The notes below the pieces were generated by a model that was not told where the DNA came from, ran no database searches, and saw only the letters and a list, made by a program, of their open reading frames with translations. A stretch of 64,000 nucleotides of DNA from Alphaproteobacteria bacterium (GTDB lineage Bacteria; Pseudomonadota; Alphaproteobacteria; GCA-2731375), in the NCBI GenBank assembly GCA_965225945.1, contig CBDDBZ010000027.1, positions 64,001 through 128,000 of the forward strand, written 5' to 3'. Below, in pieces: positions 1,087-8,116 of this stretch. The first letter of the stretch is position 1. Each line of letters begins with the position of its first letter. A program made the translations under genes and the position numbers.

Positions 1087-2669
1087 GTAACTGCCCAGGT
1101 ACATGGTGGCCTTTTAGGCGGCGTGGAGACGCTCGATCAGGGTTTCGGGATTTTCCATGAGCGCCTGGATGATGTTCCAGCCCTGTTTTCTGGCGGTCGA
1201 GATGAAGCCGCGGACGGTGGCAAAGTCTTCGGCGCCTTTCTGGCTACGGAAGCCGCCGGAGATTTTCTGCTTGACCTTCATCATGCGCCCGTCCTGCTCG
1301 GCCTGATTGTTGGTGAACGGCACGGCGAAATTGATGAGGAAGCGCAGCGCGTCTTCCTTGTGTGTCTGAAGGCGCCGGAGAAGGTTGTGCCCGGTGCGGC
1401 GCGGCTTGCTTCCCCGGCGCTTGGCCTTGCTCGATCTGGGCGCAAGAGGAGGTTGTGCCTCGTGAAAGGCGATGCCCTCGGCCGTGATCGCGTCGTAACA
1501 CCCTCGGAAGCGCTCGACGAGGCCTGGTTTCAGCGCCACGCCCCGCTCCCGGGCGAGATTTACCGCGTGGCAGGCGCGGCGCAATAGTCTCTGCATCTTG
1601 CGTGCCCAGCCCTCCTTCTCGATCTCGATCAGGGCTTGCAACTCGCGCAGGTGATGGGCGTTGCACAGCGCGTGCCGTACGCCCTCCATCGTAAAGTACG
1701 GCTTCCAGTGGTCATGGACGACGATGCCGCCGACTCCGCCGAGCAGGCTGCCGCGTCGCTCCGAGACCCGATAGAAGGTCAACCGCGCGGTCGAGGCGAC
1801 GTGCAACCATTGGGTCCGCCCGGCGATCCGCAAGCCGGTCTCGTCCATGTGCTTGACCGGCGCCGATTTCACCAGTTCGCGGATCACATCGACGACGCCT
1901 TGGACGGACTCGGCGCTGTTCCCGCCCCTCCGCGCGAGGCTCGCCGGAGACAGTTCCGCCCCGAACAGATCCTTCATCAATTCAGCCAGGCGGTCCTCGG
2001 GCAGGAGTTGGTAGTGCGACAGGTAGACCACCATGGCTCCGATCCGAGCGCCGTATTGAACCGGGCCGGTGATGGCGACGGGAAAAGAAGCCCGAGTGTA
2101 CGTGCCGCAATGCCCGCAACGGCAGCGATGCGCCCGATGCTCCGTGACCACCAGGGGCCGGGGCTCGGGTAGATCGAAAACCTGGCGGGCCCCATGGCCG
2201 GTAGCCATATCCGGCGTCAATCCCGAACCACACCACTGGCACGTCTCGGGATAATGGTCGACGGTGGCGTCGGGATCGGCGACTTGGCGCAGGGTCTCGC
2301 CCTTGTGGCCCTTTTGCCCGCCCGGCTTGCGGGCCGATTTCTTACGGAGGCTCCTGGTGCGCTTCTTTTTACCCGCCGGTGGCTTGTTCAATCCATCGCT
2401 CGACGGTGGCTTGCCGCTGTTCGTGCTGTTCAGGCCAAGCCGGCGCTCGAGTTCACCAAGCCGGAGTTCGAACTCGGCGAGCCGCGACCCTTGGGCCAGC
2501 ACCACATCGATCAGCTCGTCTTTCGACAAAAAGGCAAGAACATCCCTATCCATCGAATCCTTAGAATCCTGTCAAACGAAATCTAGGCCGTCAGCGCCCC
2601 AAACCCACAAAATCTGCCCCCAGAGACCCAATCCGCAGCCTCATCGAAATCAGCTACCTGGGCAGTTAC
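1087..2669 (-). mobile_element. IS66-family element, single-ORF (ISBst12-like) organisation
   Basis: Inverted ends GTAACTGCCCAGGTA / TACCTGGGCAGTTAC; 8-bp direct repeat GAATAAAG at 1079-1086 and 2670-2677. Confidence 0.93.
1114..2553 (-). CDS. IS66-family transposase (TnpC-like)
   Basis: NSTNSGKPPSSD, GGQKGHKG, CxxC zinc ribbons, HMDETG, LCNAHHLREL, PFTNNQAEQDGR motifs. Confidence 0.95.
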   Translation of the reverse strand: MDRDVLAFLSKDELIDVVLAQGSRLAEFELRLGELERRLGLNSTNSGKPPSSDGLNKPPAGKKKRTRSLRKKSARKPGGQKGHKGETLRQVADPDATVDHYPETCQWCGSGLTPDMATGHGARQVFDLPEPRPLVVTEHRAHRCRCGHCGTYTRASFPVAITGPVQYGARIGAMVVYLSHYQLLPEDRLAELMKDLFGAELSPASLARRGGNSAESVQGVVDVIRELVKSAPVKHMDETGLRIAGRTQWLHVASTARLTFYRVSERRGSLLGGVGGIVVHDHWKPYFTMEGVRHALCNAHHLRELQALIEIEKEGWARKMQRLLRRACHAVNLARERGVALKPGLVERFRGCYDAITAEGIAFHEAQPPLAPRSSKAKRRGSKPRRTGHNLLRRLQTHKEDALRFLINFAVPFTNNQAEQDGRMMKVKQKISGGFRSQKGAEDFATVRGFISTARKQGWNIIQALMENPETLIERLHAA

Positions 2670-2677
2670 GAATAAAG

Positions 2678-2921
2678 GTAGGCTCAATTCGTGAATTGTA
2701 TGCGTCACCTTGTTACGACGGCGGCGAGGCAGGCTCGGTCATTGGCGCCGGGGGCGAGGCCGACGAGGTGGAACCAGCTCAGGTAGTTGTCCATAGCGGG
2801 TGGCGATGCCGCGGCGGGGACGCAGGAACCCAACCGGCTGTGGCGGCTGTTCACCGTCTGCACATGCAGATCGCCCCGAACCCGAAAGTGCTTCGTGGCT
2901 CACCCCGAGCGCGGCGGCGCA
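2678..2921 (-). pseudogene. Degenerate IS1595-family transposase C-terminus and element end
   Basis: Minus strand reads, across frameshifts, ALGVSHEAL...RVRGDLHVQTVNSRHSRL...FLRPRRGIATRY/DNYLSWFHL, resembling the IS1595 HxQTVN...GIATxYLxNYL motif. Confidence 0.65.
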
Positions 2922-3008
2922 CTAGGCCGTCAGCGCCCCAAACCCACAAAATCTGCCCCCAGAGACCCAATCCGCAGCCTCATCGAAATCAGCTACCTGG
3001 GCAGTTAC
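2922..3008. repeat. 87-bp exact duplicate of the IS66 end (copy of 2583-2669)
   Basis: CTAGGCCGTCAGCGCCCC...CAGCTACCTGGGCAGTTAC occurs at both positions. Confidence 0.92.
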
Positions 3009-3183
3009 GACGTCGCGCCGAGGCCTTCATAAAGGTAACTACCCAGGTACCCCGCTCCTGACCGCGAGAGGATGATGTAGGTGGTCGCCGGGGCCGGGTT
3101 TCCGCCGCCGCGTCGTTGATCGTCTCTTGACTCCATAGAATCGGGCGTCTATGGGTTGCGCTCTCGTGTGACGGGAGCGGCGC

Positions 3184-3849
3184 GTGGAATATTTTGGGTC
3201 GAAGGCGACGAGCGGTCTGTGCCAGGCGCTGATTGCGCTGATGCCGCCGCACAGCGTTTACATCGAGAGCCACCTGGGGGGCGGTGCGCTGATGAAGCGC
3301 AAGCCAACGGGCGTGCGCTCGATCGGCATCGACCGCGATGCGCAGGCGCTCGAGGCCTTTGCCTGTGACTACCCGGTCGAGTTGGTGCATGGCTGTGCCC
3401 ATGCCTTTTTGGCCTCGTTCCCGTTTCTGGGCCCGGAGCTGGTCTACAGCGATCCCCCCTATCTGCACGCGACCCGCCGTTCGGCACGGCGCTATCGCTT
3501 CGACTACGAGGAGGTCGACCATGTCGCGCTCCTGGACCTGCTCAAGGATCTGCCCTGCCAGGTGATGGTCTCGGGCCATCCCTCGGCGCTCTATGACGAG
3601 ATGCTGGCGGGCTGGCGCAGTCTGGCGCTGCAGGTGACGACCCAGGCCCAGGTGCGGACCGAGGTCGTGTGGTTCAACTTCGCGCCCGACCGGGTGCATT
3701 GGGCGAGCTACGCAGGCCGGAACTTCACCGACCGCCAGCGCATCAAGCGTAAGGCGGCCAACTGGGGCCGGCGTTACAAGGCCTTGCCGGCGGGCGAACG
3801 CCTCGCGGTGCTGGCCGCCATGATGGCCGTCGATGCCGAGGACCCGTGA
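3184..3849 (+). CDS. DNA amino-methyltransferase, probably N6-adenine (Dam/D12-like, phage type)
   Basis: YFGSK (motif X), YIESHLGGG (motif I-like SAM binding), IGIDRD, VYSDPPY (motif IV), VMVSG. GTG start with GGAG RBS. Confidence 0.88.
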   Translation: MEYFGSKATSGLCQALIALMPPHSVYIESHLGGGALMKRKPTGVRSIGIDRDAQALEAFACDYPVELVHGCAHAFLASFPFLGPELVYSDPPYLHATRRSARRYRFDYEEVDHVALLDLLKDLPCQVMVSGHPSALYDEMLAGWRSLALQVTTQAQVRTEVVWFNFAPDRVHWASYAGRNFTDRQRIKRKAANWGRRYKALPAGERLAVLAAMMAVDAEDP

Positions 3850-5384
3850 CGCTGTCGCGCTGGCACGAGGACCTCGCCGCCCATGACGAGGCCTTCGCGT
3901 GCCTGCAAGATCTTCTTGACCCCTCATCCTTCGCAATCACAGTCGTCAAGGCCTTCCGGGAATGGGGCCAGGGGCTGTTGCGCCTGGCCACGGCGCTCGT
4001 CCGGGAGAATGCCGCGCTCGAGCGGGAGAACGCGACCCTGCGGGACCGCATCGCCGAGCTCGAGCGGAGCGCGGCGCTTGACAGCACCACCAGCAGCAAG
4101 CCGCCCGCCAGCGACGGCCTGCGCAAGAAGAGCGGAACCCAGAGGCGCACCCGAAGCCAGCGCGGCAAGTCCGGCAGGCCAAGCGGCGGCCAGCCGGGCC
4201 ACAAGGGAACGACGCTGGCGCGGACCGAGAGCCCGGACCATGTTGTGGATCATGACCCCTCCGCCTGTTCGGGCTGCGGCGCACCGCTGTCGGACGCCGA
4301 CCGTCACCGCGCGCCCGTCTGTCGACAGGTCTTCGATGTGCCCGAGCCACGCCCCCTGGAGGTCACCGAACACCGCGCCCATCGCTGCCTCTGCGGCGCC
4401 TGCGCCACCGTGACAGGAGCCGTCTTCCCGGACGGCGTGACCGCCCCGGTCCAGTACGGGCCACGCATCACCGCCTGGGTGAGCTACCTGCTGTACGCCC
4501 AGTTCGTTCCCGAGAAGCGCTTGGCCGAACTCATGAGCGACCTCTTCGCAGTGTCCATCTCCACAGCCACGATCACCGCCATGGGCCGGCGAATCGCCAG
4601 GCGCTTCGAGCCCTTCCTCGCCCATGTCGCAGACGTGATCCGCACAGCGGTCCCGGTCAAGCACCTCGACGAAACCGGCCTGCGGATCGCCGCCCGTACC
4701 CGCTGGCTCCACGTGCTGTGCACCCCATTCCTGACCGTCCTGCGCATCGGCGCGGGACGCGGCGATGTCGAAAAGGACCTCGAAGGCATCCTCATCCATG
4801 ACGATTACGCCGCCTACTTCACCCTCAAGGGCGTGCGCCACGGCGCCTGCAACGCCCATCACCTGCGCGAACTCCAGGCCCTGATCGACATCGAGAAGGA
4901 AGACTGGGCAAAGAGCATGCACCGCCTCCTTGAGCGCGCACACAGGGCTACCCGCTTCTCCCGTGAGAACGGCCGCGACGTGCCCGCCTCCCTGGTGGCC
5001 CGGATCTCGCGGGCCTGGGCCCGCATCCTCGACCACGCCATCGCCTTCCACGAGGCGCAGCCGCCGCTCCGGACCGGCAAGCGCGGACGAAAGAAACGCC
5101 GCATCGGTCATAACCTCGCGCTCCGCCTCCGCAAGCACAAGGAGGGATGCCTGCGATTCCTCACCGACCCGCGCACGCCGTTTACGAACAATGAGGCCGA
5201 ACGTGACCTCCGAATGGCCAAGCTGCGCCAGAAGATCTCCGGTGGCTTCCGCTCCGAGAGGGGTGCCTACAACTTCGCCAGAATGCGTGCCGTCATCGCC
5301 ACCGCCCGAAAGCAAGGCTGGAACGTCCTCCAGACCCTGGTGCATCCCGATCCGATGCAACTAATCCCCCAACTGCGCCTCTGA
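3846..5384 (+). CDS. IS66-family transposase (TnpC-like)
   Basis: DSTTSSKPPASD, GGQPGHKG, CSGC/CLCGAC, HLDETG, ACNAHHLREL, PFTNNEAERDLR. The start overlaps the MTase stop (GTGA); exact start uncertain. Confidence 0.93.
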   Translation: MTLSRWHEDLAAHDEAFACLQDLLDPSSFAITVVKAFREWGQGLLRLATALVRENAALERENATLRDRIAELERSAALDSTTSSKPPASDGLRKKSGTQRRTRSQRGKSGRPSGGQPGHKGTTLARTESPDHVVDHDPSACSGCGAPLSDADRHRAPVCRQVFDVPEPRPLEVTEHRAHRCLCGACATVTGAVFPDGVTAPVQYGPRITAWVSYLLYAQFVPEKRLAELMSDLFAVSISTATITAMGRRIARRFEPFLAHVADVIRTAVPVKHLDETGLRIAARTRWLHVLCTPFLTVLRIGAGRGDVEKDLEGILIHDDYAAYFTLKGVRHGACNAHHLRELQALIDIEKEDWAKSMHRLLERAHRATRFSRENGRDVPASLVARISRAWARILDHAIAFHEAQPPLRTGKRGRKKRRIGHNLALRLRKHKEGCLRFLTDPRTPFTNNEAERDLRMAKLRQKISGGFRSERGAYNFARMRAVIATARKQGWNVLQTLVHPDPMQLIPQLRL

Positions 5385-5473
5385 GAACACCGGCACCGCT
5401 ACCAGCCCGGACCCCCACGATCCCTCACATACAAACGCTCGGGCCAATCAGACCTGGGTAGTTACGAATAAAG

Positions 5474-5490
5474 TACAATGACGCCTTTTT
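5474..5490. repeat. Hairpin repeat copy A, right arm
   Basis: TACAATGACGCCTTTTT follows the GAATAAAG duplication and completes the repeat seen intact at 6473 and 8057. Confidence 0.85.
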
Positions 5491-5505
5491 CTATTCTTCG
5501 GAGAC

Positions 5506-6275: not shown

Positions 6276-6472
6276 ATCCTGAACGCCAATCTGTCGGGCC
6301 ACTTATATCACACTGCTTTGTCAAGGTGAACATCGCCGAAATTCGGTCCCCCGAAATCCTGGGTTTAGAATCGAAATCTCAGACCCGCACTCAAACATTC
6401 TGATCGTATTTGAAGACGGCAAAGTTTGAATCGGCGTCGACATAGTCGTAACGCACGAACAGGGGAAAAGGG

Positions 6473-6559
6473 AAAAGGGGTCATTCTGCTTTTTGGCCCG
6501 TTCCGCCGAATAAAGTACAATGACCCCTTTTAGTTAGGTAAAGTACAATGACCCCTTTT
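6473..6559. repeat. Hairpin repeat copy B plus a partial duplicate of its right arm
   Basis: AAAAGGGGTCATTCTGCTTTTTGGCCCGTTCCGCCGAATAAAGTACAATGACCCCTTTT (6473-6531), then TAAAGTACAATGACCCCTTTT (6539-6559). Confidence 0.93.
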
Positions 6560-7937: not shown

Positions 7938-8056
7938 AATTTCGCCGGTCAGCCTTGTCGCGGTACCGGCCGCGCCTGGTACGTCGGCTATCGGGGGTAG
8001 ACTCCCCGTCAGCCTGAGCGCCCGGTCACGCCCGAGGCTAGCCAGTCGGGAAAAGG

Positions 8057-8116
8057 AAAAGGGGTCATTCTGCTTTTTGGTCTGTTCCGCCGAATAAAGT
8101 ACAATGACCCCTTTTT
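8057..8116. repeat. Hairpin repeat copy C
   Basis: AAAAGGGGTCATTCTGCTTTTTGGTCTGTTCCGCCGAATAAAGTACAATGACCCCTTTTT, preceded by GGGAAAAGG. Confidence 0.93.

Follow-up and report, generated by a model that had tools for sequence, protein, structure and literature searches.

A Dam-like Upf31-family gene with a promoter palindrome heads unrelated insertion sequences and may form a portable control module

We analyzed a 64,000-nt stretch of DNA (the window) from an Alphaproteobacteria bacterium (lineage GCA-2731375; assembly GCA_965225945.1, contig CBDDBZ010000027.1, positions 64,001 to 128,000 of the forward strand), in which a complete insertion sequence (IS) of the IS66 family occupies 2431 bp on the plus strand (3035..5465), as defined by its ends, open reading frames (ORFs) and genomic copies. 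The left terminal inverted repeat is the 14-nt sequence GTAACTACCCAGGT (3035..3048, plus strand), with which every genomic copy begins, and the right one (5452..5465, plus strand) is its exact reverse complement, ACCTGGGTAGTTAC. Only two genes lie within these ends, both on the plus strand. The first (3184..3849) has a GTG start and encodes a 221-aa protein of the Upf31 family, whereas the second (3846..5384) encodes a 512-aa DDE transposase of the IS66 family (TnpC type), as judged from the ORF and its domain matches (PF03050, E 3.9e-41; NF033517, 290.7 bits against a cut-off of 180). The genes are joined by a GTGA junction, where the TGA stop of the 221-aa ORF (3847-3849) overlaps the GTG start of the transposase (3846-3848). 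The original prediction for this locus, which had been made from the letters and ORFs alone, described a methylase-like gene wholly inside the inverted ends whose stop overlapped the transposase start, and both the ORFs and the ends agree with it. The IS66-type transposase, the terminal inverted repeats beginning with GTAA and the 8-bp target duplications are those of the IS66 family. Since neither tnpA nor tnpB lies within the ends, we grouped the element with the IS66 forms that lack these genes, which we take to be the ISBst12 group. The plain form is represented by a sibling element on the minus strand of the window (1087..2669, 1583 bp) that encodes a 479-aa transposase only, whereas the 2431-bp element has a cassette before its transposase. 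As had also been predicted, the sibling has near-identical ends (perfect 15-nt repeats, GTAACTGCCCAGGTA) and no methylase-like gene. It is flanked by the 8-bp duplication GAATAAAG, is present in 16 full genomic copies with 8-bp duplications, and has about 66% DNA identity with the transposase part of the cassette-bearing element.

The region in front of the 221-aa gene contains three further features, all on the plus strand. First, comparative evidence points to a promoter-like element (3127..3155) consisting of TTGACT (3127-3132), a 17-nt spacer and TATGGG (3150-3155). Second, a 22-bp candidate operator palindrome, CCATAG-N10-CTATGG (3133..3154), fills this spacer and overlaps the -10 hexamer. 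Finally, a weak leader hairpin of nine pairs (3159..3179; -14.8 kcal/mol, z -1.4) includes a GGGAG Shine-Dalgarno-like stretch in its pairing, and such a hairpin is a possible second layer of control. The leader hairpins of other carriers of the gene differ in sequence (loci L073, 3965-3987; L044, 3960-3998; L067, 3955-3992; z-scores -2.6, -3.5 and -1.5), and the Shine-Dalgarno-like stretch is paired in the window and in L044.

A survey of the source genome (6.27 Mb, 39 contigs) recovered 16 copies of the 2431-bp unit with an identity of at least 99.88%: 14 uninterrupted copies, one that is split by other DNA, and one that aligns from base 5 only. Among the uninterrupted copies, the 8-bp flanks matched at 8/8 positions in nine, at 7/8 in two, at 6/8 in the window copy and at no more than 2/8 in the remaining two. 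The outer flanks of the split copy also matched at 8/8, which gives perfect 8-bp duplications for 10 of the 16 copies overall; two of the copies with perfect duplications have flanks in common. The interruption of the split copy (contig C38:239517-243982) consists of about 2 kb of other DNA near the right end and resembles an insertion into the IS. For the window copy, the left flank TCATAAAG (3027..3034, no strand assigned) matches the right flank GAATAAAG (5466-5473) at six of eight positions, an imperfection that is explained by its location within a rearranged nest of ISs. All 16 genomic matches to the 221-aa protein were 100% identical, free of stop codons and located within the IS copies. 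Contigs from public sequencing runs broke exactly at 3035 and 5465 into differing flanks in four of four runs (three RNA libraries from three studies and one library that is probably DNA), and the element was found in 20 public runs from 8 studies, sponge metagenomes included. The 2431-bp element is thus a mobile and active insertion sequence of the IS66 family. The search for other copies of the bounded unit at different targets, which the original prediction had called for, therefore supported a mobile, transporter-type IS66 unit with an intact, coupled gene, and a one-off capture by IS66 is ruled out by the 16 intact copies together with the many homologs ahead of transposases. By the definition given in PMC9330008, a transporter IS (tIS) has an additional gene between its inverted repeats, which is mobilized together with it. 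The element resembles this class in that a gene outside the transposition machinery lies within its terminal repeats and is intact in all 16 moving copies.

The 221-aa protein carries the motifs MEYFGSK, ESHLGGGA and YSDPPY, in this order. A Pfam search of it returned no family at E <=0.01, and TIGR00571 (dam) gave 24.2 bits, which is below the curated cut-off of 114.85. Homologs were abundant: 3793 clusters at 90% identity matched among 4372 candidates, and 5554 representatives at 50% identity matched at E <=1e-3, including 521 at <=1e-30. The family profile matched both DpnM (E 5.5e-9) and Escherichia coli Dam (1.8e-5), each in two pieces. Profile positions 3-59 correspond to DpnM 17-71 and positions 80-157 to DpnM 184-266, whereas DpnM residues 72-183, the recognition domain of about 110 aa, have no counterpart in the family. 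An AlphaFold model of the protein (mean predicted local distance difference test score, pLDDT, 91.3) had Dam, T4 Dam and DpnM as its best structural matches (Z 16.4-17.3, about 150 residues), which cover residues 1-167 of the model only. The top match, Dam, was aligned over 149 residues to Dam residues 8-270 (Z 17.3, root-mean-square deviation 2.4), and Dam has nothing that corresponds to the two C-terminal helices of the model (181-199 and 203-219). As modeled, the protein is a Dam-like S-adenosylmethionine (SAM)-methyltransferase core (aa 1-167) followed by a basic two-helix C-terminal domain (aa 181-219). It therefore resembles the Dam family (D12 class, alpha group: E. coli Dam, T4 Dam and DpnM) in its fold and in the motif order X-I-...-IV, with ESHLGGGA (motif I) and DPPY aligning with those of DpnM and Dam. 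It differs in that the target-recognition domain between the SAM-binding and catalytic halves is missing, in its extra two-helix tail, and in scoring under the curated cut-offs. The absence of a recognition domain, as originally predicted, was supported by both the profile and the structure alignments, whereas the relaxed specificity that had been deduced from it was not (see below). One cluster representative, P0127, is a chimera of the Dam-like N-terminal two thirds and the C-terminal motif of an IS66 transposase, which probably arose by deletion inside an element.

Sequence conservation suggested that the methyltransferase-like pocket is under constraint. Among 40 diverse members, G5, H23, D90, P91, P92, H113 and S130 were invariant, and K7, E28, G32, G34, Y93, W194 and the RIKRKA stretch were kept in at least 90%. 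DPPY was kept in 118 of 119 close homologs and in 112 of 119 distant homologs (>=190 aa), and the ratio of nonsynonymous to synonymous substitution rates (dN/dS) was 0.18-0.29 against seven relatives, indicating purifying selection on the gene. These data bear on two rival explanations. According to the first, the protein actively methylates adenine at N6, but only at its own operators, and methylation rather than occupancy sets the promoter; transposase expression would then be coupled to replication, as host Dam does for IS10. The invariance of D90, P91 and P92, the retention of Y93, E28, G32 and G34, the near-constant DPPY and the rank of Dam enzymes as best structural matches all speak for this operator-specific switch, whereas the missing Dam recognition domain speaks against it; on all the evidence, including that given below, we regard it as possible but doubtful. 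According to the second, the protein is an orphan adenine methyltransferase of relaxed specificity that acts genome-wide, either protecting the element or its vectors from restriction or rewriting the methylome, which we consider very unlikely. It draws on the combination of intact catalytic motifs with an absent recognition domain, and on the PHROGs assignment of the protein as a DNA methyltransferase (phrog_56, E 1.1e-19).

The closest studied relative is Upf31 of IncP-1beta plasmids such as pBP136 and pAKD31 (Elg et al., Mol Biol Evol 2025; PMC11997246). Over aa 1-194, the 221-aa protein shares 46% identity with upf31.0, as encoded on several plasmids of the IncP-1 (IncP-1beta) group. The two are alike in size, in a Dam-like core with DPPY, in the basic patch and conserved tryptophan of their C-terminal domains, and in promoter layout, since in both cases a 5-N10-5 palindrome lies between the -35 and -10 hexamers. 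In the experiments described in the sections of that paper concerned with Upf31, the protein was predicted to be Dam-like, but neither DpnI/MboI digests nor sequencing by the single-molecule real-time (SMRT) method revealed methylation in a methylase-free strain. The same sections report that a 68-bp piece upstream of upf31 is a promoter, that full-length Upf31 represses it approximately 50-fold (from 4.76 to 0.09 XylE units), and that there is no strong repression when the C-terminal domain, which contains W198 and a basic patch, is removed (PMC11997246). By analogy with this tested fragment, the element at 3127..3155 would have promoter activity. The two systems also differ: upf31 belongs to the plasmid backbone, is linked to the KorA/KorB circuit and has the half-site CATCG, whereas the IS gene is the first gene of insertion sequences, has the half-site CATAG and no KorB, and is followed by a translationally coupled transposase. 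In view of the missing Pfam match, the TIGR00571 score of 24 against 115 and the methylation-negative result reported for Upf31 (PMC11997246), the original claim that the element carries its own DNA adenine methyltransferase is unproven. The two negative methods count against the operator-specific switch as well. However, the SMRT test, as described, used cells carrying an expression vector (PMC11997246), and a 10-base bipartite site is expected, by calculation, only about four times in 4.6 Mb, so that this site could have been missed. A non-specific adenine methylase would have been obvious in the same data (PMC11997246), which argues against genome-wide action. Methylation by the 221-aa protein, if any, is probably confined to the operator.

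Homologs of the protein also occur on plasmids. In Sphingobium and Burkholderia plasmids (L111-L113, 49% identity), the gene belongs to a conserved backbone block with SprT-like and zincin-like metallopeptidase genes, and no family-type palindrome was found in front of it at these loci. ISSp1 (IS1380-like), which lies beside the Sphingobium homolog, was rejected as a partner because it is an independent insertion that is not in the sister plasmid. The proximity of plasmid homologs to SprT-like and zincin-type backbone genes may be counted in favor of the genome-wide methylase.

To describe how the gene is distributed, we took the 80 best-matching of 154 genomic relatives (70-100% identity) and classed the same-strand downstream gene of each by Pfam, and then by tblastn with class representatives. 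IS66 transposases were the most frequent partners and fell into a near clade (34 loci in 12 assemblies) and a far clade that is about 28% identical to the window transposase (21 loci in 15 assemblies). They were followed by ISAs1-type transposases (DDE_Tnp_1_assoc and DDE_Tnp_1; 13 loci in 2 assemblies) and IS701-type transposases (DDE_5; 6 loci in 3 assemblies). An IS630 partner, a DDE_Tnp_1 partner and a truncated partner were each found at one locus in one assembly, and no partner was found by tblastn classing at three loci, one of which (L095) has a DDE_5 ORF by Pfam. The IS630 (L056) and DDE_Tnp_1 (L087) partners were read as secondary insertions rather than as further families; L055 and L056 have in common only the cassette and an IS66-like left end, and L082, L087, L090 and L095 have in common a longer IS66-type frame. 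The 4-nt overlap between gene and transposase, based on ORF calling, is identical in 15 of the 34 near-clade loci. In the metagenomic counterpart (80 loci, 69 frames scanned, 62 with a testable downstream frame), the partners were IS66 in 38 cases, DDE_Tnp_1, DDE_5 and DUF4277 in one case each, and an Ogg-type DNA glycosylase in five. Carriers span Proteobacteria, Chloroflexota, Tectimicrobiota, Kiritimatiellota and others, and are mostly uncultured marine and sponge-associated bacteria. Therefore, the description of the gene as a peculiarity of IS66 has to be dropped: the same gene with its promoter-palindrome also heads ISAs1 and IS701 elements.

Exact element boundaries were taken from multi-copy genomes. 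The ISAs1-type element is 2143 bp long, with 17-bp ends (CAGCAGTTCTCATTTTG) and 9-bp duplications in six of six copies printed; the IS701-type element is approximately 2781 bp long, with ends CTCGACTTTGTACATTT and a 5-bp CTNAG duplication; and the element of the far IS66 clade is 2253 bp long, with 8-bp duplications. Each carrier type has family-specific ends, and those of the IS66, ISAs1 and IS701 carriers have nothing in common, whereas the gene always lies within them and is the first at the left end. At the DNA level, the window element and the IS701-type element resemble each other (83-85%) only over element positions 77-833, which extend from 73 nt upstream of the start codon to 18 nt beyond the stop and thus comprise promoter and gene. 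A tree of 48 distinct proteins, built by a quick method after identical, short and stop-containing rows had been dropped, nested the IS701-linked genes inside the near IS66 clade (support 99) and clustered the ISAs1-linked genes with some far IS66 ones (support 98). From these comparisons, the travelling unit is a cassette of about 750 bp made up of the promoter-like element, the palindrome and the gene. Because the same cassette stands ahead of unrelated IS families in many bacteria, its role seems to be that of a portable control unit, and not of a passenger picked up by chance.

The latter alternative deserves consideration nevertheless. On this account, the gene is selfish or host-useful cargo of a transporter IS, and the promoter palindrome serves its own expression only. 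Homologs of the gene also occur on plasmids and beside non-transposase genes. Moreover, PMC9330008 treats ISs that transport passenger genes as a recognized class. However, independent IS families show the same position and strand of the gene and the same tight or overlapping join to the transposase; the sibling transposase manages without the gene, yet the gene is intact in 16/16 copies and under purifying selection; and the GTGA overlap means that the cassette promoter necessarily drives the transposase. We thus consider a plain passenger improbable. In contrast to an ordinary tIS, the same extra gene and cis site recur in at least three IS families and lie within the transposase operon, which looks like a functional module. 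Methyltransferase passengers as such are listed in ISfinder. Our literature search, which left ISfinder, TnCentral and REBASE outside its scope, found no Dam-like or Upf31-like gene described as part of IS66, ISAs1 or IS701 elements.

With regard to non-transposase neighbors, the cassette lies upstream of an Ogg-type helix-hairpin-helix DNA glycosylase, without a transposase, at five metagenomic loci (L122, L184, L187, L189 and L190) and on a Citrobacter plasmid (L110). As far as the sequences indicate, this glycosylase would be a second kind of DNA-acting enzyme behind the Upf31-family regulator. The arrangement also recalls a pairing of modification and attack, which would suit the genome-wide methylase.

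The palindrome before the gene is the sole cis element common to all carriers. In every carrier type we found the same layout: TTGAC(A/T), a palindrome whose 5-6-bp half-sites are separated by 10 bp, and another hexamer that overlaps the right half-site. We scored the palindrome at ten half-site positions against CAT[AC]G, within TTGAC-N-CAT[AC]G-N10-C[TG]ATG. Among 73 assessable genomic loci, 48 matched at all ten positions, 16 at nine, six at eight and three at seven; the corresponding numbers for 68 metagenomic loci were 34, 11, 14 and seven, with two more loci matching at six. The score-8 group includes the symmetric variant CGTAG/CTACG, and the paired variants as a whole were CATAG/CTATG, CGTAG/CTACG, CATCG/CGATG (upf31 and its clade) and TATCG/CGATA. 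Both half-sites covary, as expected of a symmetric protein site. When the 75 loci whose palindrome is perfect, whether CATAG or CGTAG, were compared, only a single alignment column told the two types apart, with F181 in the 70 CATAG loci and H181 in the five CGTAG loci. The first C-terminal helix starts at this column, which may hint at the part of the protein that reads the DNA. Identity among the CGTAG loci is 76-92%, and that to their nearest CATAG neighbors is 76-80%. In addition, T182 is replaced by R in three CATCG loci, which differ at many further columns.

In the window genome, CATAG-N9-12-CTATG occurs 16 times, once per IS copy and nowhere else, against about seven occurrences expected from base composition. 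The full palindrome is present once in the window element and exactly once in each of four further element types (4/4), and never at an end. Accordingly, nothing supports the earlier proposals of restriction protection or of rewriting of the host methylome, given that the palindrome is found only in the 16 IS copies of the genome. A genome-wide methylase would leave both the conserved, covarying palindrome and the fixed position before three transposase families unexplained, and a chromosome-resident IS gains nothing by restriction protection. Relaxed specificity thus fits worst with the evidence. The original prediction had also suggested that the protein regulates the ends or the promoter of its element, and here the evidence favors the promoter. 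Because the ends are unrelated between IS families, control of the element's own ends is unlikely; methylation of IS ends as the means of control was rejected on the same ground and because no full operator lies at any end. Direct, specific contact with the transposase was likewise judged unlikely as the main function, since the partners belong to unrelated families.

On balance, the cassette is probably a portable control module that regulates itself and sets the expression of the transposase. Under this hypothesis, a sigma-70-like cassette promoter would drive the small gene and, via the GTGA overlap, the transposase. Given this overlap, and a transposase with no spacer of its own in front of it, the transposase should be expressed from the cassette promoter. 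The protein, probably dimeric, would use its basic C-terminal helices to bind the 22-bp palindrome, and occupancy of the palindrome over the -10 hexamer would shut off its own operon and hence transposase synthesis. As the protein would act in trans on every copy, repression should depend on copy number, whereas entry into a naive recipient cell without repressor would be followed by a burst of expression. The conserved SAM/DPPY pocket may serve operator methylation or SAM sensing. A similar mode of action is known for the controller (C) proteins of restriction-modification systems and for InsA of IS1, where the product of a small first gene, by binding a palindromic site in its own promoter, keeps down the expression of a potentially harmful enzyme encoded downstream; the comparison concerns mode of action only, because the helix-turn-helix and the Dam-like Rossmann core are unrelated folds.

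Several observations weigh against such an autoregulated module. A consensus promoter scan of positions 3000-5500 calls no site, because the second hexamer agrees with the consensus at 3/6 positions only. Eight RNA-library runs hold the element, but their contigs cross the IS ends into the flanks and no transcript start is readable; they may reflect DNA carry-over or read-through and do not prove transcription. The palindrome is present in four of six plasmid homologs examined, upf31 included, and absent from the other two. With 15 bp from centre to centre, the half-sites face different sides of the helix, an uncommon arrangement for a simple dimeric repressor, and the contrast between F181 and H181 rests on five loci whose ancestry may be common. 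With respect to Upf31, its tail was predicted to be a KorB-binding surface and not a DNA reader in the part of the paper devoted to this domain (PMC11997246). Binding, repression, dimerization and promoter activity at the IS are all extrapolated from the Upf31 experiment and comparative evidence. Finally, a pure repressor needs no DPPY, yet DPPY and the SAM motif are near-invariant, so that some chemistry is probably part of the function.

This last point leads back to the operator-specific methylation switch. The central T:A is the only internal pair that is invariant across all four half-site variants, and the central adenine of the right half-site is position 2 of the -10 hexamer, both of which are in favor of the switch. 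More specifically, the cassette could tentatively be described as a self-contained, portable epigenetic switch, in which the Dam-like protein would read DNA with its C-terminal helix, bind its own 22-bp operator only and methylate the central adenine of each half-site; full methylation would silence a copy, whereas copies just replicated or just arrived would be active. There is precedent among host-controlled elements: adenine methylation that overlaps the transposase promoters of IS10, IS50 and IS903 limits expression to just after replication, according to the discussion of these elements in PMC9296519. An operator-methylation mechanism would work in the same way. It would differ in that host control depends on a host enzyme and the GATC site, whereas in the present case the element itself carries along both the site and the putative writer or repressor. 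If true, such a switch would amount to the IS10/Dam logic without the host methylase, and would explain why unrelated transposase families have adopted it.

The surroundings of the window copy show signs of repeated rearrangement. A REP-like (repetitive extragenic palindromic) repeat, AAAAGGGGTCATT...GAATAAAG...AATGACCCCTTTT, is present in whole copies at 6464-6531 and 8048-8115, and has 41 blastn-short matches in the genome, 11 of them of at least 60 nt. Another copy is split at its central GAATAAAG by the nest at 1087-5465, with its left half at 1035-1086 and its right half at 5466-5490. The right end of the sibling (2583-2669) is exactly duplicated at 2922-3008; these 87 nt belong to an 89-nt exact repeat (2922-3010 and 2583-2671) that adjoins 244 bp of unrelated DNA (2678-2921) and forms a rearrangement scar. 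Further to the left, a minus-strand frame (2-433) presumably encodes the N-terminus of an IS21-type transposase, which its translation resembles, and a 156-aa plus-strand frame (532-1002) encodes what we take to be a HigA-type helix-turn-helix antitoxin.

Insertion sequences are usually thought to be restrained by cis-acting transposases and host factors. What we found suggests that at least three unrelated IS families have adopted a small, exchangeable cassette of promoter, operator and regulator. The covarying half-sites and the contrast between F181 and H181 make its recognition code directly testable. If the proposed function is true, the cassette would be a trans-acting, copy-number-sensing brake on transposition that can move between elements. 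It would also provide a natural function for the Upf31 family, whose members are annotated as "DNA adenine methylase" though the only tested one shows no methylation, and regulators may then lie behind thousands of metagenomic "orphan methylase" annotations (5554 clusters at 50% identity).

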